This document shows positions 2,520 through 24,082 of a DNA stretch of 64,000 nt, piece after piece. This DNA is from a virus. Below the pieces are notes generated by a model that saw only the letters and a program-made list of their open reading frames with translations, had not been told where the DNA came from and searched no databases. The stretch covers positions 1 to 64,000 of IMG/VR virus record IMGVR_UViG_3300043403_000102; one strand, written 5' to 3'. Both the position numbers and the translations under genes were made by a program. Position 1 is the first letter of the stretch; the number at the start of each line of letters is the position of its first letter.

Positions 2520-3632
2520 TTATCCGACCGTGAAGCTGACGTCTATGGGGCGAACTCGGATCACTTCTTCGATGGTCGCCGGATAAACGTCACCAGCCGG
2601 TGACGCCAGGGCCTGGTCGTTGATGATGGCGCCTGGCACGGTCTGAGCCGCCGTGATGAGACGAGAGCGGAAAAGTGGGTCCCCGGGGGCCAAGAACGTC
2701 GACACCGCCGAGGTCACGGCTCGGAGCTGCTCAATCACCAAGGCCTGGTCTACACCAGTCACGAACGCGATGTTCCGCCAGACCACGGGCTGAAAGACCG
2801 GCAGGCCCCCGGTAACTTGGACCGGGATTCCCGCCGCGCGATACGTGACGAGGATGTTCCGAACGTCGGTCAGCATCTGCAAAGATGCGTTCCCGTCACG
2901 GTCCCCGACCACAAGCTGGACCAAACCAGCCGGAAGCCCGGAGGGGTTCTCCGCTTCGATTGCCGTGGCCACCGCGACCCCGGGCACCTGCAGGGCCCCG
3001 AACTCGATGGCCCCCAAAGTCCCCCGGCGAATCGTTGGGAAGAAGTTCCTCACACGCCCGCGGAACTGGGTGTCGGTCTCGGCGACCGTCCCACCGGCGG
3101 CTCCCTCCGAGTTCGTCACCAGCAAGGACGTATCGAGGGGATTGTCCACGAACGCCGTCAACGTCGACACCGAGGTGTTGCTGCTCGGGCCCGCCACGAG
3201 CGCGGTGGCAAACACGGTCACGCTCAACGTGAGGGCCCCGAACACGGCGTCCGTGTTGGTTGCGAACTGAATACCCCCGGCCGTCTGGACCCGCCCGCCT
3301 GCCGGGTACGTGAAGGCGCCATAGGCTGCCGTCGGTCGGGACAGCACAAGGGTCACGGTCGCCGGGGTCGCGGGGAACCGGGAGAGGCTGAAGCGGTCGA
3401 ACACCACGCGGTCGAGCCCCGGGCCGACGGCGGTCTCGCTGAACGTGTCCCGAGCACAGGAGGCTTGAGCCACCATGATGGCTTCCGCGATCACGGCCAT
3501 CGCCCCGACGATGAGGTTCGCGTCTGAACCCGGGAGGTCTACAACCCCCGGGTTAATACGCTGCCCGGGCGTGTTGACGATGGACCGGCGACCGATCCTG
3601 AAGAAGTCATTTCTGAGGGGCAAATTTCCCAC
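2520..3632 (-). CDS. Baseplate J/gp47-like protein
   Basis: ETAVGPGLD, GGTVAETDTQFRGR, RRGTLGAIEFGALQVPGV are Baseplate_J motifs. Confidence 0.9.
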   Translation of the reverse strand: MGNLPLRNDFFRIGRRSIVNTPGQRINPGVVDLPGSDANLIVGAMAVIAEAIMVAQASCARDTFSETAVGPGLDRVVFDRFSLSRFPATPATVTLVLSRPTAAYGAFTYPAGGRVQTAGGIQFATNTDAVFGALTLSVTVFATALVAGPSSNTSVSTLTAFVDNPLDTSLLVTNSEGAAGGTVAETDTQFRGRVRNFFPTIRRGTLGAIEFGALQVPGVAVATAIEAENPSGLPAGLVQLVVGDRDGNASLQMLTDVRNILVTYRAAGIPVQVTGGLPVFQPVVWRNIAFVTGVDQALVIEQLRAVTSAVSTFLAPGDPLFRSRLITAAQTVPGAIINDQALASPAGDVYPATIEEVIRVRPIDVSFTVG

Positions 3633-3689
3633 GGCTAATCCTGATTCCTTGGGGGATTCTTTCGACCATGCCTAAAGGAGTCCACGGGG

Positions 3690-4529
3690 TCAGGCTACCA
3701 TGATGACGCCGGTCCCGGTGTCGCTTTGGAGGTTGACCTCGACGAAGGCCCCGCGCTTGGTCGTGATTTTAAGCTGCACCGAGAGGTATCCGTTAGCATT
3801 GAGCTCCAGCTTCGGAAGCACCGTCGCGGTCTCGGGCTCTTGGGATACCTGCCGCACGATGTCGAGACTCAGCTCCCCGAGCTTCCGCGTCGACATGGGA
3901 CGCTTGAGCGGGACCGAGACCCCGTAATCGGGCAGCCACGAGAAAGCGCCCTTGCTGGTGACGAGCCTTCGGATGATTCGCTTTTTGTATCCCGACTGGT
4001 CGGACTGGTTCGCGATGTCGCCCCCTTGGTCCACTGAGTACCCTCCGGTCACTGGGTCGCTGGCGATGTCGACGAGTCCCCGCTGCCCCGTAGGCAGGAA
4101 GGGTTCTTGGAGCTTGATGATGCCGCTGAACGGCTGGGAGTAGGGAGATCCGAGAGCCCCGCCCGCCTTGGCCACGAGCCGCTTGACCGTGACCTGATAC
4201 TGAAGGCCCACGATGAGCTGGCGGTCTGTCTGGATGTCGAAAGCGCGCTCGTCACCGGCGAACACCGCGAGGGTGGGTCCCGTGACCATGTTCTCTTTCA
4301 CCCCAATGACTTGGGGCTTGACGCCCTGCCCAGAGGTGATCGTGATGTCGTAGTTCCCAGGGTTGAGGGCGTCGTTGACCCCTGCCGAGGTCAGGTGAAA
4401 GGGCTCCTCATCGAAGACCACCCGAACGGTCTGCCCTTCGATGGCGCGGGCCCGCACGACGTAAAGGGGGCCTCCACTGCCTAAAGGATCGCCCCAACTT
4501 TCGCCCCCGAAACCATACATCGTGGCCAT
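3690..4529 (-). CDS. Baseplate gp25/gpW-like protein with N-terminal Ig-like domain
   Basis: C-terminal RRLVTSKGAFSWLPDYG (gp25-like TxxGxxxxxPDYG); N-terminal beta-rich VRVVFDE..NPGNYDI; start placed at ATG 4529. Confidence 0.7.
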   Translation of the reverse strand: MATMYGFGGESWGDPLGSGGPLYVVRARAIEGQTVRVVFDEEPFHLTSAGVNDALNPGNYDITITSGQGVKPQVIGVKENMVTGPTLAVFAGDERAFDIQTDRQLIVGLQYQVTVKRLVAKAGGALGSPYSQPFSGIIKLQEPFLPTGQRGLVDIASDPVTGGYSVDQGGDIANQSDQSGYKKRIIRRLVTSKGAFSWLPDYGVSVPLKRPMSTRKLGELSLDIVRQVSQEPETATVLPKLELNANGYLSVQLKITTKRGAFVEVNLQSDTGTGVIMVA

Positions 4530-11965: not shown

Positions 11966-12001
11966 GGGAGCTAGATTGCCCCCATGTCCCTTCTGGGTCA
12001 A

Positions 12002-12439
12002 CTAGGTCGACAGCAGATAGGTCGTTGCCTTGAACGAAAAACTCATCTCGACGTATGCGTCACGCCCCGATACCGAGAACGGAATAGGGTCGAACTTCAT
12101 GTCAGGGATGGTGATGCGTGCGACCTGAGTATTCGGGAACTGCACCCGGAACGTGCAGTTGACCGTCTCGTCGTTGGCCTGCCGTCGGGTGGACCGATCG
12201 ACGATCATGCGCTGGAGGTCCAGCATGTCGGCGTTCTCGGGGACGATGGAGAAGCTGCCCGCCACCTCCTCGAAGATCTCGTCCTGTCGCTGGGCAGTCT
12301 CACCGAGGTACCCCTCGGTGAGAATCTTTTGAGACGGCGTGAACGTGAAGTTCTTAATCGCCGTCATCGACTTTAGAAGCACCCCGCTGCGGGTGAACCG
12401 CACCGTGACGCTCTTACCAAGGATCCGAAGTTCGCTCAT
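12002..12439 (-). CDS. Tail tube protein
   Basis: 145 aa beta-rich, directly after the sheath. Confidence 0.8.
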   Translation of the reverse strand: MSELRILGKSVTVRFTRSGVLLKSMTAIKNFTFTPSQKILTEGYLGETAQRQDEIFEEVAGSFSIVPENADMLDLQRMIVDRSTRRQANDETVNCTFRVQFPNTQVARITIPDMKFDPIPFSVSGRDAYVEMSFSFKATTYLLST

Positions 12440-12469
12440 GATTGAATTTCCTCTTTAAACCTTGGGGTC

Positions 12470-14269
12470 TTAGGCGGCAGGAGAAGCATCGACCGTGGGG
12501 CCGATTTGGGTTTGGAACACGATCGCATCCATGTCGCCGAGCATGCGCACTTTGACGATGATGGTGCGGATACCTACCGCCGTCAGCGCGGGGGTGTTCC
12601 CTGACTTAGGGTCGACAAGATACTGCTCAATCCTCTGAAGGCTCGGGTTGTTCGGGGACAGGAGCGAATCACAGAACGACTGAATCTCGCCCGTGATGGC
12701 GTCGACCCGTTCCGTGGTTCCGGGTTCCTTCTGGTAAGGGGCCGCGATGGCAGCCAAGGTGTCCTGCACAAAGTCAGCGAACCGCCGACGGTTGTCTTTA
12801 ACCCGCGTGGGGTAGGTCGTGGGGTTCGTGGCCAGCACGGAGGACTGGAACAACCAGCCCACGGCCCGATCCCGCCGCAAGGCCGAAAGCCCCTTGGCCT
12901 TGAACGCCACGTAGTCAGCCCGGCTGAACGGGTTGGCCACGAAGGCGGGTTCCATCTGCTGAATAGTCGTGAGCTGCGTGTTGGCGACACCGGACTCGAC
13001 TTCCTCGGCCAGGATGGAGAACAGCGAAGCCTTCCACCCTGCGGGGCTGATGAAGATGTTCCGCCCCAGCTCCGTCGAGTAAATGGCGGTGTAGGGGAAG
13101 TTCACCGAGATGCGGTCAGCATTCACGCCGCTGAACAACGCCGGGAGGGCCTTGGCGTTGGTCTTGGCCGTGGTGGCGTTGGAGCTGGACGCGGACACCG
13201 AGGGGTTGGCCGACACGATGGCGATGCGCCCACGGCCCACCTGAGAGGCATCCTGAGCGTTGGTCCAAAGGGCCCCGCGGATGGCGCCCTGAATGGTGGG
13301 GCTCAAGTCGTTGCGTGCGGCGAAGATCGCACCGATGTCGTCCGTGACCTCCTGCCCAGGGGCCGTCCCAGCGATGGCCGCAGGGTAAAGGCTGGCGAGC
13401 TTGGCGTTCAAGCTCACGGCCGCGGTGCCAGGAGCGAAGACCGCCGTGGCCGCACCCACCGCCGAAACGGTGCTGATGTTGGACGAAGAGATCGTGGACA
13501 GGAAGCCCGGGATCGCCGGGTCCAAGACCGTGTCGATGAACGCGATGGCCGCCGTGGTGCCCTTGACGAAGAACGCCGTGGCTCCGAGGGGACCGCCCGT
13601 GGCAACGCCCGACGTGTTGATGAGCCGGGTGAGAACGCCCGACGTCGCGTCCTGGGTCATGTCGAGGGTCGAACCCACGACTGCCGAGACCGGGACCACC
13701 GCGCCCGTGAGCGACGTGCCCTTGGGGATAACGATGTCCTGGGACAGAGAGATGATGACGGTGGCCGACCCAATGGCCGCGTCAGCGAACCGGGTACCCG
13801 CAGGCACCACGATCTCGATGCCCGTGATGAGGGCGTTGTCCGGGTCCAACTCAGCGGCGTTGACCGTGACTTCGAACGCCACGAACACCTTCGCGGTCCC
13901 GCCGTCCGTGGCCACCATGTCGGTGGGGACTCGCTGAAGCGTCAGCCGCCGGAACTGCCGGTTCTTAAGGTGCGCGATGCCGTTGCCCTCGAAGGACTGC
14001 CCGGATCCGTCCTGAACCTGGTTCGCGGTGTCGAGGCGATCTTGGGAAAGCTGGTCCGAGAACCCGCCGTAGGTGGCGGCGATCTCCCCCGAGCTGAAGA
14101 CCTCGGTGGGGGCGAATGGTCCCTTGAGGAACTCGGCCACCATGCACGTCGAGCCAGCGGAGACCCCGAGCTGAACGCTCGGACCCGTCTGGTCAACGAT
14201 GATGACCTGCTCCAGTTCAAGGATCTGGGGAAGGGTCGGGGTCTGCGTTACTCGGGTGACAAACGGCAT
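12470..14269 (-). CDS. Tail sheath protein
   Basis: 599 aa; AEFLKGPFAPTEV..FGGF-like N-terminus, NRRRFADFV and SGNTP..I...V..LGDMDAI C-terminal sheath motifs. Confidence 0.88.
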   Translation of the reverse strand: MPFVTRVTQTPTLPQILELEQVIIVDQTGPSVQLGVSAGSTCMVAEFLKGPFAPTEVFSSGEIAATYGGFSDQLSQDRLDTANQVQDGSGQSFEGNGIAHLKNRQFRRLTLQRVPTDMVATDGGTAKVFVAFEVTVNAAELDPDNALITGIEIVVPAGTRFADAAIGSATVIISLSQDIVIPKGTSLTGAVVPVSAVVGSTLDMTQDATSGVLTRLINTSGVATGGPLGATAFFVKGTTAAIAFIDTVLDPAIPGFLSTISSSNISTVSAVGAATAVFAPGTAAVSLNAKLASLYPAAIAGTAPGQEVTDDIGAIFAARNDLSPTIQGAIRGALWTNAQDASQVGRGRIAIVSANPSVSASSSNATTAKTNAKALPALFSGVNADRISVNFPYTAIYSTELGRNIFISPAGWKASLFSILAEEVESGVANTQLTTIQQMEPAFVANPFSRADYVAFKAKGLSALRRDRAVGWLFQSSVLATNPTTYPTRVKDNRRRFADFVQDTLAAIAAPYQKEPGTTERVDAITGEIQSFCDSLLSPNNPSLQRIEQYLVDPKSGNTPALTAVGIRTIIVKVRMLGDMDAIVFQTQIGPTVDASPAA

Positions 14270-14284
14270 CGGGGAGTCCTCCTG

Positions 14285-14935
14285 TTAGGGGGCGACAACG
14301 TCGATGGACACATCGACGTCGGTCATGATCTGAATCTTTAGATTGAGAGGATACACCGGCCCGACCCTCACCACCGATGCTTGAGCCGACACTGTGAACA
14401 CGGCGTCCCGTTGTTCCCTGATGGCGTGGTCCTCATCATCTATCACGCGGGAGGCCGACAGAGCAAACCGCGCGCACAGCCCGTAGTAGTCGGGCAGGGG
14501 CAGCATGATGCCGTAGCGGGGGCCAAAGGCCTCGCTCATCAGAAGCTCGGGGAACACGAAGGACTGCTCTACCCCCAGCATCACCGCATCTCGCTCGGAC
14601 ACGTGGGCGCAACGGATGCTGACCTCCATGTCGACGTCCATCTCGGCCAGCTTGTACAGGCCGAAGCCCGCCTCGCCTTTGACCTCCCAAGTATCCTCGA
14701 GAAGGGTGGGCGTAAAAAGCGCGTCGGCATACTTGGCGCTGGTGGGCAGCACGCAAGCGGAGGGTGGGACATAGCGGTCAAGGTACGAGGGCCACTCATC
14801 GAACACCGCAGCGAACTGAAACCGCGAAGGGTTGAAGAACTCCAACCCTTCGAGGTGCCGCGCCAACGCCTGAGCCATCGCGGACTTCACGTCCCGCGTG
14901 GCCTTGCGGCTGTACTGGTCACGGCTTATTGGCAT
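14285..14935 (-). CDS. Tail terminator/completion protein
   Basis: Position immediately before the sheath; size. Confidence 0.6.
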   Translation of the reverse strand: MPISRDQYSRKATRDVKSAMAQALARHLEGLEFFNPSRFQFAAVFDEWPSYLDRYVPPSACVLPTSAKYADALFTPTLLEDTWEVKGEAGFGLYKLAEMDVDMEVSIRCAHVSERDAVMLGVEQSFVFPELLMSEAFGPRYGIMLPLPDYYGLCARFALSASRVIDDEDHAIREQRDAVFTVSAQASVVRVGPVYPLNLKIQIMTDVDVSIDVVAP

Positions 14936-15446
14936 TGGGTGCCCCTGAGTTTAAGACCGCATCCTTGATTGCGGCAAGCAATACAGGTTTCCACCGCGCA
15001 ACGGCATGCTCCAGAATGTGCATCCCGGGCTTCCCTTTCAGGACCATCTTGCGTGCGATGGCGAAGGCGATCCCCTTGGCGGCCTTCTCGCGGTTCTGCT
15101 TGCCTCGGATGCCCTTGGTAAGTCCCTTGCGCAGGACCCAGGCTTGGAGCGGGGCGATCGGGGGTTGCCTCGCTCCCTTGCGTCGACCGTGCTCTATGAC
15201 GGCGGCATAAGGAGTGGGGTTGAATATGGCGACGCCGTTGTCCAGATCTCGGGCCTGCCATCCCCTGCGGTACGTGCCTCGGTCGACGGGGGCGGGTTGC
15301 GTGTTGCTTATCTCGTTCTGAATGATGACCAGGGCGTCCGTCTTGGCCGACAGGCGCATGGCCTTGGTCATCGCGGCATGCACCTGCTTGGGGCGCGCCC
15401 TCAGGTACGCGGGCAAGTCTTTCAGGGCGATGGTGTAGTTGGCCAT
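14919..15446 (-). CDS. HK97 gp10-like neck protein
   Basis: PVDRGTYRRGW..NPTPYAAVIEHGRR motif. Confidence 0.8.
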   Translation of the reverse strand: MANYTIALKDLPAYLRARPKQVHAAMTKAMRLSAKTDALVIIQNEISNTQPAPVDRGTYRRGWQARDLDNGVAIFNPTPYAAVIEHGRRKGARQPPIAPLQAWVLRKGLTKGIRGKQNREKAAKGIAFAIARKMVLKGKPGMHILEHAVARWKPVLLAAIKDAVLNSGAPNANKP

Positions 15447-16054
15447 CACGGCCCTCGGCGGCTGCTTCCACCGCGGCGGTCGTTGTTGTAGTCCTGTTTT
15501 GTGAGATGGATCTTCCACTGGAAGATGTCTCGCGTCAGCATCGGCACGGCATCGGGCACGTATCGACGGCGCACGGGCGCGGGATCACTGGGGCGGTTCT
15601 CGACCACCTCCCAAAAGAACTCCCGGTTCACCCAGCCGGTGGCGGGAAAGGCAGGGTCTTGAAGGTCGGGCGTCTTGCCCAGCAAATCATCCTCGGTGTA
15701 CCGGCAAGAGATCTGTTCGACCGAGATGCCTCCCCCCTCGGTCAGCCCGAAGGCCGGAAGGTTCAGGCCCGTAGCCCCCATGTCCTGCACCTGCGGGGTC
15801 GGCAGTATCTCAACACGAGAGAGTTCGACCTGCTCGCCCTCGCCGCGGCGCTGGCCGGACCACGCGACGTGGACCAGGTAAACGCAGTAAGAGCGCATCC
15901 CGAACTGGCTGTAGAGCTGTCGGATTGTATCCACGACCGGCACCAGGGACGATGCCAGCGTGGGGCCCTCGGGGATATGCTGCACGACACGCGTCGCCTC
16001 TGGCATCTCTGCCAAAGGCGTCCCGGACTGCGTGCGGTTGTCCCCCGATGACAT
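15446..16054 (-). CDS. Head closure / head-tail joining protein
   Basis: Synteny between adaptor and gp10-like gene. Confidence 0.55.
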   Translation of the reverse strand: MSSGDNRTQSGTPLAEMPEATRVVQHIPEGPTLASSLVPVVDTIRQLYSQFGMRSYCVYLVHVAWSGQRRGEGEQVELSRVEILPTPQVQDMGATGLNLPAFGLTEGGGISVEQISCRYTEDDLLGKTPDLQDPAFPATGWVNREFFWEVVENRPSDPAPVRRRYVPDAVPMLTRDIFQWKIHLTKQDYNNDRRGGSSRRGP

Positions 16055-16062
16055 TCAGGCTT

Positions 16063-16287
16063 TCAGACGGCCGCGCCCGAACCGTCATGCCAAACGGCGC
16101 CCGTCCACCAGATCGGCTTCCCCAGCGTGGTGTCATAAACCATCGTCCCAACGGTCGTCACCGTAGGACGTCCCGCCGTCGTGCTGGACCGCACGAGCGC
16201 GGTCACAGGACCGTTGAACGCGGTCTCGCGTGTGAGGTTGCCAGTGGACCCGGGGACTTGTTCGAGAAGGACTACTTGGTCGGACAT
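16063..16287 (-). CDS. Small virion protein
   Basis: TTAGRPT..VGTMVYDTTLGKPIWWTG..W motif common in phage fibre/decoration proteins. Confidence 0.65.
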   Translation of the reverse strand: MSDQVVLLEQVPGSTGNLTRETAFNGPVTALVRSSTTAGRPTVTTVGTMVYDTTLGKPIWWTGAVWHDGSGAAV

Positions 16288-16313
16288 GATTGATTCTCCT
16301 TGGAGCTTTTTGG

Positions 16314-16730
16314 TTAGTGAACGCGAGGGATGAACATTGGGGCGGGGCCCTGCCCGGCATTGAACCGCTCGGCAAAGGCATTCAGCGGGATGCCCAGGTC
16401 ATTGGCCAGGCGCTTGGCCCAGCGGGCATACTCGGCCTCAATCCGCTCGGGTTCGTCTTGGCGCAGCGTAATCTCGCCTAGCTTGGTCGCAGAGAATCGC
16501 GTCTGCGCATCGATGAGGCGCTGCTCGATGGTGTCGAGGACAGCGATGTAATTCCTGATGATGCCGATGGCGGTCTCGGGGATCCTGTTCATCGCCAGCT
16601 CCAGGAGGAACATTGGCTGCGAAGATCCGGGCACCCCAAGCACGATGCTGGACACGGGGTCAATGAGCGGATACCCGGTGTGATGCCGTATACGGGCCTT
16701 CTCTTGCTCTGTCAGGACCGCGTTCGCCAT
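16314..16730 (-). CDS. Head-tail adaptor
   Basis: LTEQEKARIRHHTGYP helical protein shortly after the capsid gene. Confidence 0.65.
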   Translation of the reverse strand: MANAVLTEQEKARIRHHTGYPLIDPVSSIVLGVPGSSQPMFLLELAMNRIPETAIGIIRNYIAVLDTIEQRLIDAQTRFSATKLGEITLRQDEPERIEAEYARWAKRLANDLGIPLNAFAERFNAGQGPAPMFIPRVH

Positions 16731-16742
16731 CCCTACAGCCTA

Positions 16743-17126
16743 TCACGCCTGCGAGATTACGATGGCCTTCGGCAGCGAGTGCTTGTCGCCCACCAACTCC
16801 AAGTTCACCCCAAGGGCCTTCATCTCGTCGATGTCGTAGTGAAACGAACTCAGAACCTTGCCCCGGGGGAGCTGGTAATAAATCCCCCCGCGCTTCGGTA
16901 CCCGACAGGTCTCCTTGACCAGCCAGAACGTCTCGACCCTAATGGGCGTAGGCGCCAGCACAGGGGCTGGGGCCGGAACCGCCACAGGAACCGCTAGGGG
17001 AAGAGTTTCCTGCGCCTCTAGGGGTTTGGGCACGGGGACGGGAATCGGGGCCCTAGGCGCAACGGGGGAAGCCCCGGGGAACTTGGGGGGCTGAGGGCGA
17101 CCGGGGGCTATGGGTTTGGGAGGCAT
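16743..17126 (-). CDS. Hypothetical Pro-rich protein
   Basis: ORF in operon. Confidence 0.6.
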   Translation of the reverse strand: MPPKPIAPGRPQPPKFPGASPVAPRAPIPVPVPKPLEAQETLPLAVPVAVPAPAPVLAPTPIRVETFWLVKETCRVPKRGGIYYQLPRGKVLSSFHYDIDEMKALGVNLELVGDKHSLPKAIVISQA

Positions 17127-17134
17127 TTTTAAAA

Positions 17135-17373
17135 GGGTAGCCGACCATCATCTGCGGGGACAAAGCGTCAGACCGAAGTCATCAGCATCCAGGCTTTAAC
17201 CCAAGCCGGTAGGGAGTCCGAGTTCCGATGGTCGGTGTCACTCAATCGCAAGGTAGAGCCGAAGCCCGTTTGGTCAGTGAGTGACGGGTACCAGACACAA
17301 AGGTCTGGAGCCCAGCGGCGGGGGCTCGCACCCCTTGGGACCCCGAAGGTCCTACCGCTGGAAGCCCTAGGGC
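17135..17373 (-). ncRNA. Putative multi-domain structured RNA downstream of the major capsid gene
   Basis: Nested helices 17141-49/17227-35, 17237-44/17278-85, 17291-96/17303-08, 17312-18/17355-61; three cUUCGg loops and a GCGA loop on the minus strand. Confidence 0.7.
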
Positions 17374-18750
17374 TTACGTGCTGCCGTGAACGACAACCAC
17401 GGCGCGCTTGAACGCGGCGGGGCTGGAGAGCGCGGTGACGTCGGTTGGGATCGCCCAGTCGCCCGAGAACGACCAAGAGGCGCTCGTCTGCTGCTGCAGG
17501 CGGTCCAAAGGCGCGCGGAGGATCAAGCGGATCCGCTCGGTCATCACCTGGACCCCGCCGTTGACGACGGAGAACTCACCGATCTTACCCTGGATGCCCG
17601 CCTCGGAGATGTACCGGCTTTCGTCCAGGTACTTCTCTTCGACGGCCCCTTGGCCGGTGAAGATGGGGCGATGGATGGGGACCGCCGTGGCGTTCACCAA
17701 CTCGAAGCCCGTGGTGAAGCCGTTGGTCGGATCCTCGCTGACCGTGGCCAGCGTCGGAGACTCGGTGTTCTGGTAGAAGGTGCAGCCCAGCAACATCGCC
17801 ACCGCGAACCGGCGGTAGTGGATGTAATCCGGGATGGACTGGTTCAACCGCTGGAACTCGTTGTCGCCAAAGATCTGGCTCTCCGAGATCGGGTCGAAGT
17901 GACAGTGATAGGTCCCGTCCTCGTGGGTGGGGACGTTGTCGTAGCGGAGCTGCGCCACCGAGGCACGCACATCGGCCAACGTGAAGGCGTCGACCGCCGA
18001 GATGGCATCGACCGAGGTGCCGCCGCCCGCATAGACGAGGCGCGAACGGTTGTCCGCCAAGACCGACTCGCGACCCGCGAGAACGCCAACCGCAGGCGTC
18101 ACCGTCAGGGTGCCGCCGTGGATCTCGTCACCAGGGATGTCCGAGGTGAAGCCCGTGACCAGGCCGACGTAACCGCCAGTGATCGAGATCGCGATGGGGT
18201 TCGCAACCGACACCGGGGTGGGGCGACCGTTGAACAGCTTGCGAGTGAAGCCCGCGAGGTTCACGACAGGGACCGAAGTGCCCGCACCTACGCCGCCCGC
18301 CTTGACGACCGTGTTACCGGCCACGTAGCAGTTAAACAGCTTGTCGCGAACGACGCGGTTCAAGCTCTGCCCCGAGTGGAGGCCGAGCTGATGCATGTTG
18401 CGCAGGTACTGCGACGCAAGCGTCACGTAGCTGGTGGGCATGCTGGTGTCGATGGTGCTGGCCCACTGCTGAGCCGTGGCTTCCCACTGCTCGATGCCGT
18501 AGGAGACAGGCACCGGGTCGTTGCCCGGCTGCAGGGGGCGCGTGGTCGGGGTGATGAGCCCGGCACGCGTGAAGGTCTGGTTGGCGCCAAGGTTCACAGG
18601 CCACATCTCCGCCACGGCTTCCATGCGGAAAAGCAGCCGTGGGTACAGGGCATCTCGGAAGACGCGCTGAAGGGTGCGATCCTGGATGGACGCCACGACG
18701 CTTGCGTTGAAGCTCGTGACCGCGAGTGACGAATCGGGGAAGTTGGCCAT
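17374..18750 (-). CDS. Major capsid protein
   Basis: 458 aa after the scaffold, strong codon bias, SD (AGGAG) upstream; QLGLHSGQSLNRVVRD and VPTHEDGTYHCHFDP resemble HK97-fold N4-gp56-type capsids. Confidence 0.88.
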   Translation of the reverse strand: MANFPDSSLAVTSFNASVVASIQDRTLQRVFRDALYPRLLFRMEAVAEMWPVNLGANQTFTRAGLITPTTRPLQPGNDPVPVSYGIEQWEATAQQWASTIDTSMPTSYVTLASQYLRNMHQLGLHSGQSLNRVVRDKLFNCYVAGNTVVKAGGVGAGTSVPVVNLAGFTRKLFNGRPTPVSVANPIAISITGGYVGLVTGFTSDIPGDEIHGGTLTVTPAVGVLAGRESVLADNRSRLVYAGGGTSVDAISAVDAFTLADVRASVAQLRYDNVPTHEDGTYHCHFDPISESQIFGDNEFQRLNQSIPDYIHYRRFAVAMLLGCTFYQNTESPTLATVSEDPTNGFTTGFELVNATAVPIHRPIFTGQGAVEEKYLDESRYISEAGIQGKIGEFSVVNGGVQVMTERIRLILRAPLDRLQQQTSASWSFSGDWAIPTDVTALSSPAAFKRAVVVVHGST

Positions 18751-18855
18751 GTGAAATTCTTGCTCCTATTTTGTTCCAGCGGAAACGAGTTGTTTGTTTA
18801 TCGCACGAAGAGAGTGGGTAACGCAAACGATCCGCCCGCCGTCGCGCCCCCGAGA

Positions 18856-19647
18856 TTACATCCCAGGACGGTAACCGTATGTCCCCTGCATGTGTTTATT
18901 GAACGCCGTGGGGGACATCTTGTCCACATCAACCGTACCGCCACCCGGGGTGGTAGGTGTAGGAGTAGGCAAAGACTCCCCCGGTAATGTGGAGGCTTTG
19001 GGGGCGGTGCCCGCAGGGACCGCAACCACAACGGGAGCGGCAGGGGTCACGTTGCCAAACAGATAGGGATGCGTGTTCTTCAACGTCCCGTAGAACGTCT
19101 CAGGGGTCAGCGTGTTGTCCGCCATCACGGCACGCGCGAAAAGCTGCACCGCGAGGGTCGCGCGCTCGTCGTCGGCAACCCCGGCTCGAAAGGCCGCGCT
19201 CTTGATGGCTTGCTCCATCTGGGCGTCCTTCAACCGGCGGGTGTCCTTCTTGTATTTGTTCTCGATGTCCTGGGCCCGCTTGTTGGCCTCGGCCAGTTGG
19301 CGCTCGGCCTTGCGCAGGGCAGCCGCGTGGTCGGCCGCTGCGGCGGGGGTTCCTGCCGGTGCGGCGGGCGTGGCCGCTGCAGCACTAGAGAGCTTTGCTC
19401 GCGCCTCCTCCAAGGTCATCCCCAGCGCTTCACGAGCCAGGGCATTGGAGTCCCGGCGAACGCGTTCCTTGAACGCGCTGACGGGGATTCGAATTTCCTT
19501 GGGCTTGTTTTTCTGACTCCCAGCAGCAGACACGGGCTTTGCGGCGGCAGGCACAGGGGTGCTCACCGGGGCGGGTGGCTCGGTCGGGGTTACGGGCTGA
19601 GTGGGGTCTTGCGTTGGATCGGGCATGGGATTCTCCTGGGTACTCAC
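18856..19647 (-). CDS. Capsid scaffolding protein
   Basis: Coiled coil, LKNTHPYLF, DVDKMSPTAF C-terminus; precedes the capsid gene. Confidence 0.8.
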   Translation of the reverse strand: MSTQENPMPDPTQDPTQPVTPTEPPAPVSTPVPAAAKPVSAAGSQKNKPKEIRIPVSAFKERVRRDSNALAREALGMTLEEARAKLSSAAAATPAAPAGTPAAAADHAAALRKAERQLAEANKRAQDIENKYKKDTRRLKDAQMEQAIKSAAFRAGVADDERATLAVQLFARAVMADNTLTPETFYGTLKNTHPYLFGNVTPAAPVVVAVPAGTAPKASTLPGESLPTPTPTTPGGGTVDVDKMSPTAFNKHMQGTYGYRPGM

Positions 19648-19712
19648 CGATATTTACCGCTCGGCGGGGGCGTCTTGGAGGGTGGGCGCGAGGCTTAAGT
19701 GAGGGGTAGTTT

Positions 19713-20102
19713 TTAGAGGCTGGCTTCGAGGACCGAGGCCTTGTCAGTGGCGACCGAGTAGGTCACGCTGACAGCGGTGGCGGCGTCGATAGGCGAGAAC
19801 AAGATCTTGGTCGCGCCGTCCCAGATGCACTCGCCGGTCGCTGCGACCTGAGCTCCAGAGCCGGTGATGACGCCACGACGAAGCGTCTTCACGCCCGTCA
19901 CGGTTCCCGCAGTCACGTTGACCTGGAACAACCCAGAGGGAGTCGCGGCCATCGTGGCGATGTTGGACGCCGGAACCAAGCCCGCCTCGGTGGCGGTCAT
20001 CGACTTGATGAGCTTGGTCAGGAGCTCGCCGATGGGAAGCGCATGAAGCGCGTCTTCGAGCTGGTTCAGGTTGTTGGTATTGAGAACTTGACGAACGGAC
20101 AT
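19713..20102 (-). CDS. Hypothetical head-region protein (possible decoration protein)
   Basis: AGGAGG SD, beta-rich, in head module. Confidence 0.6.
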   Translation of the reverse strand: MSVRQVLNTNNLNQLEDALHALPIGELLTKLIKSMTATEAGLVPASNIATMAATPSGLFQVNVTAGTVTGVKTLRRGVITGSGAQVAATGECIWDGATKILFSPIDAATAVSVTYSVATDKASVLEASL

Positions 20103-20154
20103 GATGGCCTCCTAGAAATTTGAAACGTCTACAAGTCTACTGAATAGGTGGGCG

Positions 20155-20550
20155 TTAAGTAACGTCCCCCGCGATCACGTATTCGAGGTCTGCGGTACCG
20201 ACGCACTTGATGCTCGTGACCTCAGAGCCCGCAGAGGGTGTCGAGAGCATGAACAACTCAGATACGGGGAAGGCCTGGTCCGTGCCCGCCGCGCTGGTCA
20301 GCTTTACAACCAGTGACCCCCCGCGAACGCGCATGACAATCACGCGTACCTTCGTGATCGTTTCTAAGGCGATCACGAAGGGCGCTAGGTCCGTGGCCCC
20401 GTTGATTGTCGGCCGTGCGCCCTTGCTGGACCCGTAAGTGCCAGTGAACGACGTGTTCAGCAGCTCGGTCAGGCTCGGGGACGAGATCGAACTTTGCGCG
20501 GGAGATCCATTGATGGACCCCGTGTGTTGCATGACCGACGGGCTGGCCAC
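20155..20550 (-). CDS. Hypothetical head-region protein
   Basis: 131 aa beta-rich ORF. Confidence 0.6.
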   Translation of the reverse strand: MASPSVMQHTGSINGSPAQSSISSPSLTELLNTSFTGTYGSSKGARPTINGATDLAPFVIALETITKVRVIVMRVRGGSLVVKLTSAAGTDQAFPVSELFMLSTPSAGSEVTSIKCVGTADLEYVIAGDVT

Positions 20551-20561
20551 GGGGGGTTACC

Positions 20562-20735
20562 TCAGCCCCCGACCGATTTGAGGCCCTTGCCAGCGAGAGG
20601 CGTCTCGCGGACCGGGTTCAGGCTCGTGCCCCAGGCGTCCGCTTCGGACTGCTTGGGCGCCGCGGGGGTCTTGGCAGGATCGCCGTGAGCGCGATCGTAT
20701 TCGTCAGTCGTCAGCTTGGGTTCGGGTTCGCTCAT
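20562..20735 (-). CDS. Small disordered protein (57 aa, below ORF-track cutoff)
   Basis: Manual translation MSEPEPKLTTDEYDRAHG...RETPLAGKGLKSVGG*; fills the gap exactly. Confidence 0.6.
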   Translation of the reverse strand: MSEPEPKLTTDEYDRAHGDPAKTPAAPKQSEADAWGTSLNPVRETPLAGKGLKSVGG

Positions 20736-20765
20736 GGGAAGGCTCCAGTTGGGAAAGGGTTAGGG

Positions 20766-21131
20766 TCAGTCGTTACCGTCGCCGGACTCGTCAGCAGCAC
20801 TCGCCGCGAGTTCTTCCTCGCTGATGAGCTCATCAGACAGGGCGCTGGCCTCCTCGGCGTGGGCCCGGAAGTCCTCGACCGCTTTGCCCAGCTTGCCGAT
20901 GTCGACGTCCGTATCCGTGTCGGCCTTCAGCAGAGCATCGATTCGGTCGGCCATCGTGGCCATGTCCGCCGACAGAGTCAGCAGGGCCTCGCCCGTGACC
21001 GTGGGCGCGGGCTCGCCGCCACCCTCGTCACCGTCAGGCTCACCGCCGCCACCGGCACCAAAGTCTTCACCGACGGGGCCTTGAGCGGCGTTGCGGGCGG
21101 CCCAGTTTTTCAAGTCTTCGGGATTCATCAT
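20766..21131 (-). CDS. Acidic hypothetical protein
   Basis: 121 aa, Asp/Glu-rich helical. Confidence 0.6.
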   Translation of the reverse strand: MMNPEDLKNWAARNAAQGPVGEDFGAGGGGEPDGDEGGGEPAPTVTGEALLTLSADMATMADRIDALLKADTDTDVDIGKLGKAVEDFRAHAEEASALSDELISEEELAASAADESGDGND

Positions 21132-21164
21132 CGGAGAGTCTCGCTTGTGAGAGGGGGAAAAGGG

Positions 21165-21335
21165 TTAGCGCTTCAAACCAGAGGCAGGCGCGGGGCCTGC
21201 CGGGGGATTCGACACGTTGATGTCGTACGTGGGGGCCGCGGGGAGGGTGCTGCCCTTGGCGGCCTGCTCGACGACGGCGTCATCGAAGTTGGCCTTGTTG
21301 TTCTTCTGCAAAGCGATCTCGCGTGGGCTGGGCAT
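21165..21335 (-). CDS. Small disordered protein (56 aa, below cutoff)
   Basis: Manual translation MPSPREIALQKNNKANFDD...PAGPAPASGLKR*; start overlaps the upstream stop (TAATG). Confidence 0.6.
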   Translation of the reverse strand: MPSPREIALQKNNKANFDDAVVEQAAKGSTLPAAPTYDINVSNPPAGPAPASGLKR

Positions 21336-21541
21336 TACCGACCTCCGGTCAGGTTCTTAAAAGGCGTCGAGTCAACGACAGGGGCGCCGCTCTCGGTGGG
21401 GTCATCCGACAACCCGCCGGACTGGATGCGCTCCATGTCCGAGGCGAACGTGTTCTGCCTCATCGGGACATAGGGGCTCGTTGGATCGGAGGGGTGCCCG
21501 TCCAGGGTTTGCGATTGAGGAGGACCTTTAGATGCAGCCAT
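21335..21541 (-). CDS. Small disordered protein
   Basis: 68 aa ending DSTPFKNLTGGR. Confidence 0.6.
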   Translation of the reverse strand: MAASKGPPQSQTLDGHPSDPTSPYVPMRQNTFASDMERIQSGGLSDDPTESGAPVVDSTPFKNLTGGR

Positions 21542-21547
21542 GATGAT

Positions 21548-21853
21548 TCACTCCTCCGCGATGTTCGCGACCAGATAGAGCAACAACGCCAGCTTATCAG
21601 GGTTTTTGATTGTTCCCAAGCGGCTCACCATATCGCTGCATTGAGCCATGTCCGGCTTCAAAGCAGAGAGCCCCTCGACCAGGGCCTCCAGCTTCGGGTT
21701 CTCCCCCAGCAAACTGACAACGGTATCCATCGACACCAGCGGCTCGGTCTGAGGGATGGCTTTGGACATCGCAAGCAACTGCCCATCATGGACCTCGTCC
21801 TCAAGACGACGTGATGCCCAATCGGCTAACGGCTCGTCTGTTGAGTTCCACAC
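21548..21853 (-). CDS. Hypothetical protein
   Basis: 101 aa ORF in operon. Confidence 0.55.
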   Translation of the reverse strand: MWNSTDEPLADWASRRLEDEVHDGQLLAMSKAIPQTEPLVSMDTVVSLLGENPKLEALVEGLSALKPDMAQCSDMVSRLGTIKNPDKLALLLYLVANIAEE

Positions 21854-21876
21854 GGTGATTGAGGTTGCTCTGAGAT

Positions 21877-22803
21877 TCAGGGCAGTGTCAAGCCCTGCGG
21901 CACTTCGGCAGTCACGTCACCAGGCCCATCATCATCGGGCCTTGTGACCGAGCTGTTCTGCCATGAGGGGGACCAAGGGATCACGACAGCACGATCATTG
22001 GGCCTGCCCGGAGGCATCATAAAAGGCGGATACCCCTTCTTTCCAGGGGGTGGCGTGTACACGAAGGGATCTCCCATGTCCCTCACTTGCCCATGCAGTC
22101 TCTTCGAGTCGTCGCCCGTTCGGTCGTCGAAAGTCTCGATGAGCTTGCGCTGGAGCTTGGGGATCTCTTCTTGAACCTTCCTCATCGTGGCGTACTGCGT
22201 GACCCCGTAACTGTGGCTGAGCTCCGTTCGAACTATGCGTTCGGCACGCCACCGCTGGGCAGCGAACACTCCGTCGGTACCCACCACGCGGTCGATGGCC
22301 TCGTCGACACCCTCGCCCGAGATGATGGACTTAGCCATCTGCATCTTGACCTGCTCGACCACGGGCTTGGTGTAGTAGGCCTCGGACTTTTTATATCGAT
22401 TCAGCAGCGCGGGGTGAACGTCTTTATAGACGCCGCGAAGGACTGCAGCCTGCTCGACCTGTAACACGGGTGCGTGTCCGACGAACTGCTTTTCCAGGGC
22501 TTTTACCGAATAAACCGTGTGATGCGCACCCAGAGCACTGGCCTGTGCCCCGGTGGAATCGAGGTGCCCGACGAGCTTATTCCCGAACTGCTGGATGCCT
22601 GCTTTGAGCTGGAGCATGACAAGGCGGGCGTGATAGGCGCTGAAGGACTCGCCCATGCCCCGCTTGACGAGGGCACGCAGCTTGGCCTCCATCTCGGCGC
22701 GCACCTCCTCGTACATGGGGGCCATCTTTCGGATCCCCCTAAGCTCAATGATGCCCTTGATCTGGGCACGCTGCAGCTTCAGGACCTTGTCGAGTGCGGT
22801 CAC
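21877..22803 (-). CDS. Mu gpF/SPP1 gp7-like minor head protein
   Basis: RAERIVRTE, DDRT..LHGQ, PPGRPNDR motifs. Confidence 0.88.
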   Translation of the reverse strand: MTALDKVLKLQRAQIKGIIELRGIRKMAPMYEEVRAEMEAKLRALVKRGMGESFSAYHARLVMLQLKAGIQQFGNKLVGHLDSTGAQASALGAHHTVYSVKALEKQFVGHAPVLQVEQAAVLRGVYKDVHPALLNRYKKSEAYYTKPVVEQVKMQMAKSIISGEGVDEAIDRVVGTDGVFAAQRWRAERIVRTELSHSYGVTQYATMRKVQEEIPKLQRKLIETFDDRTGDDSKRLHGQVRDMGDPFVYTPPPGKKGYPPFMMPPGRPNDRAVVIPWSPSWQNSSVTRPDDDGPGDVTAEVPQGLTLP

Positions 22804-23654
22804 GGTTTCAGCTCTGGCGGCTTCTTTCCGTCTTCGATGGCGTTCTCACGCTTTATGCGCGCGATGTCGCTATCGCCAATCAACACCAGGGGGAGGGGAA
22901 GTACCCCGCGAGCGAAATGAATCTTCGTGATCTTCTTTTCATCGCCCGGTTTCACCCTTTCAAAACGATGAACTTCTACATACGCCTCGCCCAACGGGCT
23001 GCGCACCCAGAAATCAGGCGTGTACAATCTGCCGTCGCCGAGATCGAATTGCTGCGGCTCGTATTTCCAGGCGCACCCGAGCACATCCAGTCTTTCGGCA
23101 AACGCCACTTCCCACGTCGAGCGCATTTTCACGCCACCGTATTTTACCCAAACGATCGGCCGCACGGCCCCCCGCTTTTTCATCGCCTCCTTAAACACCG
23201 GACCGCGAACGAACTGACGCATGCGGTCTCGGCGCGCCTCATCCGACCAAATTCGGCGCGCCACCGCCGACCTAAGCTTTTGGTACTCGGGCGTGCGCAC
23301 GCTCGCCAGGTGCCTGTCGCGGTGCTCCGGGTTCTTCCACGAGCGCTGCGATCTTGTCCTTTGAGCATCTCGCGCCCCTGGTACTGCCCACTGGCTTTTG
23401 GCGCTTTCCGAATACGCCTTCGAGGCACCCGCTTTAGAGCACGCGGGGGAGCAGTATTTTGTGACTCCTAATCGACTGGGAAACACCCGAAACTCCGCAG
23501 CGCATTCAGAGCACGCCGCATAAACAACAGGCTTTAAAGCCCCCCCGCGCTTCCCCGCGTGGCAACAAGACGGAGAGCAATACCGATAGACGTGCGAGGG
23601 CCCTCTCTTCTGCGCGACCTTCCCGCCGCAAGATACGCAAGCCGTGTAGATCAT
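22800..23654 (-). CDS. Zn-finger PD-(D/E)XK putative homing endonuclease
   Basis: Two CxxC..YCSxxC repeats; MRSTWE..WKYEP..YTPDF..YVEVH. Confidence 0.75.
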   Translation of the reverse strand: MIYTACVSCGGKVAQKRGPSHVYRYCSPSCCHAGKRGGALKPVVYAACSECAAEFRVFPSRLGVTKYCSPACSKAGASKAYSESAKSQWAVPGARDAQRTRSQRSWKNPEHRDRHLASVRTPEYQKLRSAVARRIWSDEARRDRMRQFVRGPVFKEAMKKRGAVRPIVWVKYGGVKMRSTWEVAFAERLDVLGCAWKYEPQQFDLGDGRLYTPDFWVRSPLGEAYVEVHRFERVKPGDEKKITKIHFARGVLPLPLVLIGDSDIARIKRENAIEDGKKPPELKP

Positions 23655-24082
23655 TTGGTCATCGGCGGGGGAGATTTATCGGCATCCAGGGCGTCTTCTC
23701 GCGCATGGCAGAGGTCATGGTGGCGTGCACACAAGACGTGAAGGCTGTCGAGGTCATCGCCTTTGGGCTTCTTGGCCTGGGCCTTGAGCCACTTGTCGGC
23801 CTCGGGATCTTCGGCAATCTCTTTCTTGTGTCCGGCGATGTGGTCGAGGTCGAGGTTTTCCTTCGGGGCCTTGCAGCCGGGGATCTGACAGGTCCACTTG
23901 TCCCGCTGGAACACGGCGAGGGCCAGCTTAGGGTCGAGACCTCCCTTGCCGTTGTTCTTGAGGGTGGCCCCTGCGGCCTTGGCCTCGGCTTGAATCTGCC
24001 CGACGGTGTCGAGCTTCTCGGCCAGGCGAAAGGCCGTGTTCTTGAGGTGCCTGGCTGCCCAGGGAGGAAGTACGCGCGGCAT
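23651..24082 (-). CDS. HNH endonuclease
   Basis: VFQRDKWTCQIPGC..LDLDH..LHVLCARHH. Confidence 0.8.
   Translation of the reverse strand: MPRVLPPWAARHLKNTAFRLAEKLDTVGQIQAEAKAAGATLKNNGKGGLDPKLALAVFQRDKWTCQIPGCKAPKENLDLDHIAGHKKEIAEDPEADKWLKAQAKKPKGDDLDSLHVLCARHHDLCHAREDALDADKSPPPMTK

Follow-up and report, generated by a model that had tools for sequence, protein, structure and literature searches.

A conserved structured RNA behind the major capsid gene of uncultured phages and its possible role as an attenuator of the downstream gene

Introduction

What occupies the only long gap in a packed stretch of a phage late operon, between the gene for the major capsid protein and the small gene that follows it? 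The question is posed by IMG/VR virus record IMGVR_UViG_3300043403_000102 (82 kb, estimated to be 96% complete, 60–65% G+C). Its first 64,000 nucleotides were analyzed, and this stretch is called the window. The minus strand around the element is a late operon, in which 247 nt (17127–17373) separate the capsid gene from a gene that we refer to as gpX; no other long gap interrupts this part of the operon. A first-pass annotation, made from the letters of the window, had placed a multidomain structured RNA in the gap and had recognized no known family. Comparison with relatives indicates that this is a real, conserved RNA under structure-level selection in a clade of uncultured freshwater and sediment phages. 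Tentatively, we read it as a cis-acting structured leader, an elaborated transcription attenuator of the gene downstream of the capsid gene.

Fold of the RNA

On the minus strand, the gap consists of three folded domains and a tail:

17291–17373, minus strand: domain 1, a small palindromic hairpin, a three-way junction (17312–17361), and a 6-bp hairpin (17291–17308), from minimum free energy (MFE) folds
17237–17285, minus strand: domain 2, an irregular long hairpin, from MFE folds of relatives and RNAalifold
17141–17235, minus strand: domain 3, a three-way junction closed by a long helix, from hand alignment and a covariance model
17127–17140, minus strand: tail CUACCC-UUUU-AAAA, single-stranded, running into the start codon; U-run at 17131–17134

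The helices first proposed for these domains were reproduced from the sequence and in MFE folds over a span of 17127–17373, and the three cUUCGg loops and one GNRA loop are present as described. A stem of 7 bp closes the junction of domain 1, and its two arms are hairpins with a cUUCGg and a GCGA loop. Domain 2 is built of stems of 8 bp (outer), 3 bp (middle), and 4 bp (apical, capped by a UUCG loop), together with a conserved internal loop (AC / YACC). In domain 3, helix P1 comprises 9 bp (17227–17235 with 17141–17149) and helix P2 comprises 4 bp (17216–17219 with 17158–17161). Hairpin P3 is formed by 17203–17209 and 17189–17196 with a bulged U, and hairpin P4 (17165–17186) carries a UUCG loop. 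A candidate pseudoknot pairs 17212–17214 with the P3 loop (17200–17202). The 247-nt gap sequence occurs once in the 82-kb record.

The word (C)CUACC appears three times in this RNA on the minus strand, namely in the internal loop of domain 2 (17250–17256), in the junction strand of domain 3 (17212–17220), and in the tail (17135–17140). Similar words stand at the same three places in several relatives. They may represent a repeated protein-binding word or the trace of a module duplication.

Folding energy by itself is borderline. The whole gap scores z = −1.77 on the minus strand (7 of 200 shuffles folded as well) versus −2.21 on the plus strand. The corresponding values are −2.77 versus −1.49 for domains 2 and 3 together and −1.65 versus −2.06 for domain 1. 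Equivalent stretches of relatives range from −3.59 (L006) and −3.13 (L022) to just −0.60 (L004). Measured against shuffles the fold thus neither clearly fails nor clearly passes. Since the energy is unconvincing, the case for an RNA rests on the relatives.

Conservation among relatives

Queries for relatives were the capsid protein and an alignment made from 38 homologues. A wider search for capsid homologues gave 528, about 70 of which have 70% identity or more. Together with the window, 27 viral contigs and five metagenome contigs make 33 records, and the DNA behind the capsid gene was read in each. A homologous domain 3 is present in 15 of the 33: the window, L003–L008, L022, L025, L026, L027 (equal to L026 in the stretch read), L028, L031, L037, and L039. 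The capsid proteins of these carriers are 66–83% identical to that of the window, and 11 of the 15 also contain domain 2. A similar long closing stem with another interior is found in L036, L038, and perhaps L012; the remaining records are without such an RNA, with the locus of L033 ending too early to be judged. The variant RNAs at the equivalent place (L036:2844–3100, L038:2841–3130, L012:2950–3140) keep the long closing stem and the U-run. The interior of L038 consists of two plain hairpins, and L036 has GGGGGUU-like letters outside a hairpin loop.

Thirteen domain 3 sequences were aligned by hand. They follow a single order: P1 (5–12 bp), an internal loop, P2 (3–5 bp), a junction strand, P3, P4, and then back through P2 and P1. 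In two of the 13, P2 is merged with P1 or absent. P3 contains 4–5 bp, a bulged U, and an extension of 1–2 bp that starts with a nearly invariant C-G; the loop of P4 is usually UUCG. The helices are complementary in all 13 sequences despite differing letters between lineages, and P1 is built from seven unrelated sequences. The exceptions are one mismatch in 4 or 5 bp (three cases) and the outer pair of the P3 extension (three cases). Native 5′ and 3′ flanks of the core can form an uninterrupted helix whose greatest length is 5–12 bp, with at least 7 bp in 11 of 13. With flanks swapped between lineages the mean is 5.7 bp, and 7 bp or more are reached in 32 of 148 combinations.

A covariance model (R1) built from seven sequences, with the window left out, recovered all three nonseed members in place: L025 with E = 2e-26, L003 with E = 3.6e-4, and the window at 17155–17221 on the minus strand with E = 6.8e-4. 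It gave no further significant match in 135 kb and found one significant copy per genome in all five records searched. A second model (R2, 10 seeds) placed L005 where expected with an E value of only 0.097, and it missed L031, L037, and L039; the membership of these three rests on the hand alignment. The domain 3 core was also scored in a 10-sequence alignment that was fitted to the nested structure of the model, with the pseudoknot added by hand, and in which about five lineages are represented. In this alignment 93.8% of 227 cells are paired, compared to 68.5% after shuffling, and none of 500 shuffles scored as high. Sliding the partners by one to three columns reduces pairing to 33–38%. Of 23 pairs, 17 changed on both sides, and the covariation score is 0.72 versus 0.26. 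What weighs against these numbers is that the sequences are few and related and that, except for the pseudoknot, they were aligned to the very structure that is being scored.

Domain 2 shows a common architecture in single-sequence MFE folds of 10 out of 10 sequences. RNAalifold on 11 sequences returned 15 pairs, 11 of them compensated on both sides, and a conserved internal loop beside the apical UUCG hairpin; in this alignment the window row is misaligned by MAFFT at its 3′ end, and this increases the number of broken cells. Domain 1 behaves differently. Relatives have from one to approximately seven hairpins of unrelated sequence at this position, many with cUUCGg loops. The expected covariation in relatives is therefore strong for domains 2 and 3 and does not extend to domain 1, whose hairpins differ in number and in sequence.

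The strand is equally clear. The letters CTTCGG occur 35 times on the sense strand of 13 RNAs (approximately 3.8 kb) and never on the opposite strand. In the whole window they occur 29 and 37 times per 64 kb on the two strands, or approximately 0.5 per kb, so that the RNAs are enriched about 18-fold. Together with the G-U pairs in the aligned helices, the sense-only cUUCGg loops fix the strand and the level of selection as that of RNA, in agreement with the coding-strand preference noted in the first-pass annotation.

The P4 hairpin, written as an 18-nt IUPAC pattern, matches 37 stretches in the viral contigs. Two of them are the element itself, on the contigs of L003 and L004 that were already in the set, and the remaining 35 are coding or unrelated stretches. 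L003, L004, L022, L025, and L028, and also L012 and L036, share a motif CGCAAGTTC / C(A/G)CAAGUUC at the 5′ edge of the RNA. C(A/G)CAAGUUC overlaps the capsid stop codon in L036, and similar letters form a covarying hairpin in L006 and L007. Within the window, CGCAAGTTC is not enriched (24 matches with at most one mismatch versus 16.8 expected).

A candidate pseudoknot in domain 3

In the hand alignment, 3–4 nt just 5′ of P3 are able to pair with the 5′ part of the P3 loop. The two strands change together between lineages (junction strand / loop):

CCC / GGG: window, L004, L031, L039
CCCG / CGGG: L005
CCCC / GGGG: L037
CGCG / CGCG: L003
UCGC / GCGA: L006–L008
ACGC / GCGU: L022, L026

L028 has one mismatch. 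The geometry is that of a classical H-type pseudoknot, with 0–2 nt crossing to the 6–7 bp of P3 and a closing loop of approximately 3–6 nt. Since the covariance model is ignorant of these pairs, the alignment is unbiased toward them. In the 10-sequence alignment 90% of the pseudoknot cells pair and two of four pairs covary (G-C in eight versus C-G in two sequences; A-U in three versus U-A in three, with four unpaired). This support is modest, because each covarying change corresponds to roughly one event. A cross-lineage control also weighs against the pairing: swapping partners between lineages yields pairing of the native length (mean 3.4 versus 3–4). As the control fails to separate the native partners, we regard an H-type pseudoknot in domain 3 as only probable.

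Linkage to the downstream gene

Which neighbor does the RNA belong to? The first-pass annotation had described it as lying directly behind the capsid gene and being cotranscribed with it. This position does not define the element. In all 14 RNAs, 10–45 nt lie between the end of P1 and the downstream start codon, and the distance from the capsid stop codon to domain 3 varies from about 107 to about 1160 nt. In L003, L005, L025, and L037, open reading frames (ORFs), a whole gene, or terminators are inserted on the capsid side. In L025, the capsid gene is followed by a canonical terminator, an ORF of 292 amino acids (aa) with an HNH motif (2921–3799), the RNA (approximately 3865–4135), and the downstream gene at 4163. 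L003 has a 59-aa ORF between capsid gene and RNA that resembles the N-terminus of the HNH proteins of other loci. In L005, a canonical terminator and a promoter-like site (TTGACA-N17-TAGATT) precede one hairpin and domains 2 and 3, and in L037 a canonical terminator stands ahead of the RNA. Because the distance to the downstream start is kept despite these insertions, the element is held in cis to the downstream gene, whatever lies upstream. Judged from gene order, the RNA belongs to the small downstream gene and is not defined by the capsid gene.

The site just behind the capsid gene is also a hot spot for a mobile cassette, in which a canonical terminator and a promoter-like site accompany the gene for an HNH endonuclease whose N-terminus carries a CxxC zinc finger. 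The stretch 2866–3799 of L025 includes the whole 292-aa gene, similar ORFs occur behind the capsid gene in L013 and L017, and L003 (2188–2367) contains the 59-aa N-terminal remnant. The terminator and promoter of L005 may be another remnant of this cassette.

The 3′ end and the distribution of terminators

The first-pass annotation had reasoned that the RNA is not a simple terminator since it lacks a U-tract. The premise does not hold. Four U (17131–17134) follow domain 3 of the window at a distance of 6 nt, and a run of 3–9 U lies behind the closing stem in all 14 domain 3 RNAs with tails read; by eye, the variants L036 and L038 have one too. In L003, L004, and L005 the U-run directly adjoins the stem (0–1 nt); L006 and L007 have it next to an outer helix, whose 5′ strand is A-rich and whose 3′ strand is U-rich. 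A spacer of 3–9 nt, often CUAC-like, precedes the U-run in the window, L022, L025, L026, L028, L031, L037, and L039. The U-run of L022, L025, L026, L028, and L039 can pair with a following GGAA(AA), which forms a small hairpin before the ribosome-binding site.

Terminators were scored over the 160 nt after the capsid stop codon of each locus as a stem of at least 5 bp with a loop of 3–8 nt and at least 5 U in the 8 nt starting 0–2 nt after the stem. A canonical terminator was found in 9 of 16 loci without the RNA (L009, L011, L012, L013, L015, L016, L017, L042, and L044; by eye also in L035 and L041) and in 3 of 16 loci with the RNA (L005, L025, and L037), counts that are not independent because the loci are related to one another. 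Weak 5-bp matches lie inside the RNA of L006–L008. Terminators and RNA are complementary in their distribution, and comparison of the loci places the closing stem and U-run where relatives have a terminator.

Possible function and alternatives

The proposal of an attenuator would work as follows. The stacked closing helices (approximately 13–18 bp) and the U-run would serve as a hairpin for termination or pausing and would have taken over the function of the terminator behind the capsid gene. The loop of this hairpin would have expanded into a folded junction that joins two strands approximately 70 nt apart and is probably locked by the pseudoknot, with domain 2 and the hairpin array possibly adding stability or cotranscriptional order. 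If some polymerases stop here, transcription of the capsid gene would exceed that of the following head-completion and tail genes. On transcripts that read through, the helix close to the start codon may limit translation of the first downstream gene. More speculatively, the conserved junction could bind a protein or small molecule, which would make attenuation conditional. We infer termination, as well as its conditionality, from what can be read directly: structure, conservation, strand, gene linkage, the U-run, and the distribution of terminators. Inefficient terminators are a documented phage means of balancing gene expression, as a passage of PMC9163698 describes.

Several observations weigh against this proposal. 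The window does not score as a canonical terminator, since its stem (P1 with 9 bp and P2 with 4 bp) encloses 77 nt and is followed by only 4 U that start 6 nt after P1. In this sense the earlier statement that the RNA is no simple terminator stands. The spacer of 3–9 nt is shared by the eight-member majority; the U-tract has canonical spacing in L003, L004, and L005, and in L006 and L007 after the outer helix. Furthermore, L005, L025, and L037 carry a canonical terminator besides the RNA. The promoter-like site of L005 lies directly before the RNA, a waste if domain 3 were an efficient and unconditional terminator, and this layout suits a stable noncoding RNA at least as well as an attenuator. 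Finally, no conserved antiterminator pairing was found: the longest upstream complement to the junction strand does not exceed that of shuffles in any of 13 RNAs (p 0.08–0.92). P1 and the U-run could themselves be the expression platform.

A special form of the attenuator is unlikely but would be of consequence. Domain 3 could be a sensor that occupies the loop of a terminator with a long stem, with the pseudoknotted junction binding an assembly protein or a small molecule. The folded state of the junction would then determine whether the closing helix forms soon enough to halt the polymerase. Conserved folding with covariation and conserved unpaired positions, as in riboswitches, is present; the gene context is structural and points to no metabolite. 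If this version were true, expression of capsid versus head-completion and tail genes would be tuned to the state of assembly, and phage structural operons would contain a terminator-embedded aptamer of a new class.

The layout of L005 leads to the main alternative, which we also consider unlikely. The RNA could be a stable noncoding RNA whose 3′ end is made by termination at the domain 3 stem and U-run, and which acts in trans or structurally, for example by binding or titrating a protein. It would derive from the capsid 3′ untranslated region in most phages and from its own promoter in some; a virion or packaging RNA, as suggested in the first-pass annotation, is a subcase. L005 indeed resembles a free-standing small RNA gene, with terminator, promoter-like site, an RNA of approximately 190 nt, closing stem, and U-run. 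Moreover, a terminator would not require the conservation seen inside domains 2 and 3, UUCG hairpin arrays would be resistant to exonucleases, and there is one copy per genome. On the other hand, the RNA always abuts the start of the next gene (10–45 nt) even after upstream insertions, as a leader also would, and domain 1 is unconserved. No target or partner can be named, none of the Rfam models matches (the packaging RNA pRNA included, if Rfam holds one), and nothing ties the RNA to packaging; the protein sponge of the first-pass annotation gained no support either.

Processing or stabilization of mRNA is a distinctly doubtful explanation. A nuclease could cut the U/A-rich tail or the long irregular hairpins, and the hairpin array could shield the 3′ end of the capsid mRNA or a new downstream 5′ end, thereby uncoupling half-lives. 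RNase III sites of phage T7 and REP-type (repetitive extragenic palindromic) stabilizers work as elements of this kind. The very stable tandem hairpins, the conserved single-stranded U-rich tail beside the stem, and the intercistronic site between high-copy and low-copy structural genes would all fit. However, shielding the capsid 3′ end would achieve nothing in L005, L025, and L037, whose capsid gene is separated from the RNA by a terminator (in L025 also by a whole gene), yet the core is kept, in L025 with an E value of 2e-26. A pseudoknotted junction with conserved unpaired bases also exceeds what a stability hairpin needs.

We find it quite improbable that the RNA mediates processive antitermination in the manner of put or EAR, that is, by binding the polymerase as nascent RNA and causing read-through in the late operon. 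In favor of such a role, this is a complex intraoperon RNA located in cis; it probably contains a pseudoknot, it heads over 5 kb of genes for head completion and the tail, and in L005 it lies directly behind a promoter-like site. The put RNA by itself acts on the polymerase, according to PMC9378689. No Rfam model matches, however, and the element itself ends in a stem and a U-run. Terminator-like sites in 12000–24000 of the window are no more common than in shuffles (9 found versus 9.4 expected), so there is nothing obvious to antiterminate.

A recoding signal at the end of the capsid gene, which would yield an extended capsid protein by −1 frameshifting or readthrough as in T7 10A/10B, can practically be dismissed: the −1 frame of the window is open for 206 nt past the capsid stop, but among 15 relatives this length varies from 14 to 317 nt (+1 frame, 7–316 nt), indels are not multiples of three, the number of hairpins varies, and a terminator or ORF parts the RNA from the capsid stop in four relatives.

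The open −1 frame of the window corresponds to a 102-aa ORF (17168–17476, minus strand) that overlaps the end of the capsid gene and crosses domains 1 and 2; since relatives do not preserve its open length, it probably arose by chance in G+C-rich DNA. A kink-turn or box C/D motif in P4 was considered and rejected. There is no 3-nt bulge, the UGAU/UGAC or UGAC/UGAC elements in the window, L003, L004, and L005 are possible symmetric 4×4 loops, and the tandem G-A motif is absent from P4 in 9 of 13 RNAs (L006–L008, L022, L026, L028, L031, L037, and L039). ARAGORN reported no tRNA or tmRNA gene in the whole window.

Operon and phage context

The genes that frame the RNA in the late operon are as follows:

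21877–22803, minus strand: MuF-like head morphogenesis gene
18856–19647, minus strand: scaffold-like gene
17374–18750, minus strand: major capsid (head) protein gene, 458 aa, upstream neighbor of the RNA (PHROG 1357, E = 1.9e-14)
16743–17126, minus strand: gpX, 127 aa, the gene with which the RNA travels (from translations and an alignment of 13 homologues)
12470–14269, minus strand: tail sheath gene, reached after small genes behind gpX

The capsid protein has no Pfam family match. The best tblastn match, with 36% identity, comes from Streptomyces phage Kromp; it is annotated as major capsid protein and represents the nearest cultured relative. Scanning 185,579 species genomes with the capsid protein or its alignment returned no relative and one irrelevant match of 30 residues; consequently, neither a prophage nor a host was found. 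The N-terminus of gpX is hypervariable and of low complexity (P/A/Q-rich, 30–120 aa; proline-rich in the window), and a C-terminal domain of approximately 45 aa is conserved across 13 loci. The gpX protein of the window matches no Pfam or PHROG family, and none at E ≤ 1 recurs among nine gpX homologues. Unlike most neighboring genes, gpX is without a Shine–Dalgarno sequence in the window, and the same is true in L004.

Near-identical DNA is present in freshwater and sediment metagenome runs, and there is no RNA run among the sequencing runs listed with such DNA. Contigs from four DNA runs differ from positions 16700–17800 in few places, all of which are in domain 1 and the end of the capsid gene, and they contribute nothing usable on covariation. 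None of the listed Logan contigs from four DNA runs with near-identical DNA of the phage extends across the RNA region; those of run X2 leave a gap between 16995, where one contig stops, and 17258, where the next begins.

Comparison with known systems

The failure of the first-pass annotation to recognize a family was borne out by Rfam 15. For 16000–18500 of the window at E ≤ 10, nothing over the structure reaches half its gathering score, the best model being sX2 with 16.5 bits versus 40, and 11 relatives gave no match at E ≤ 1. Literature searches on Mu-gpT-DE, on structured RNA and covariation at capsid genes, on antitermination RNA, and on read-through of capsid terminators yielded no description of this element. 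The closest source of similar material is a catalogue of 8,495 candidate structured RNAs (csRNAs) from IMG/VR, of which 879 lie within 25 bp upstream of genes and 1,241 have predicted terminators (PMC10690425). Like the RNA described here, these csRNAs come from IMG/VR contigs and include covarying intergenic RNAs beside phage genes; the main text of PMC10690425 names capsid genes only for motifs upstream of them. As far as can be told from these sources, the family is undescribed, and it may be listed without description in that catalogue.

Other known RNAs share the setting or the location in cis. The Mu-gpT-DE RNA motif lies downstream of Mu-like major head genes, and is thus likewise a conserved RNA next to a phage major head gene. 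In contrast, the present RNA is much larger and tied to the downstream gene, it has no Rfam match, and its capsid neighbor has no Pfam family. The RNAs put of phage HK022 and EAR, the latter of which contains a pseudoknot, are also cis-acting, self-sufficient nascent RNAs in or heading long operons. Neither model matches here, the element ends in a terminator-like stem with a U-run, and there is no excess of terminators downstream.

Closer parallels are found among terminators. Phages need hundreds of capsid subunits per dozen connector or tail-completion subunits, and the textbook device for this excess is a leaky terminator behind the capsid gene, such as T-phi of phage T7. The RNA shares with T-phi the site between capsid and lower-copy structural genes and a stem followed by a U-run, and relatives have a plain terminator at this place. 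It differs from T-phi in having a conserved junction of approximately 70 nt, with a pseudoknot as we read it, in place of a loop, in being preceded by a second domain and a hairpin array, and in a U-run that is often 3–9 nt off the stem, so that the window does not qualify as canonical. In HMP-PP (thiS) riboswitches, a folded domain is nested in or overlaps a terminator stem, and in a similar way a conserved folded domain within a terminator-like stem could set the efficiency of termination. In contrast to those riboswitches, the present RNA stands among phage structural genes, matches no Rfam riboswitch, and showed no alternative pairing.

This clade of phages appears to have swapped the plain hairpin for an RNA of 200–400 nt that comprises two conserved domains and probably a pseudoknot and that has been kept through gene insertions. 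If the junction merely helps a long-range terminator stem to close, the RNA would illustrate how simple terminators become elaborated; a junction with a binding partner would make the RNA a regulatory sensor within a structural operon. In both cases, it adds a well-supported new RNA family to the catalogues. Among known systems, the leaky terminator behind the capsid gene is what it would resemble most in its action, and perhaps also the terminator-embedded aptamer; it is a member of neither class as defined.

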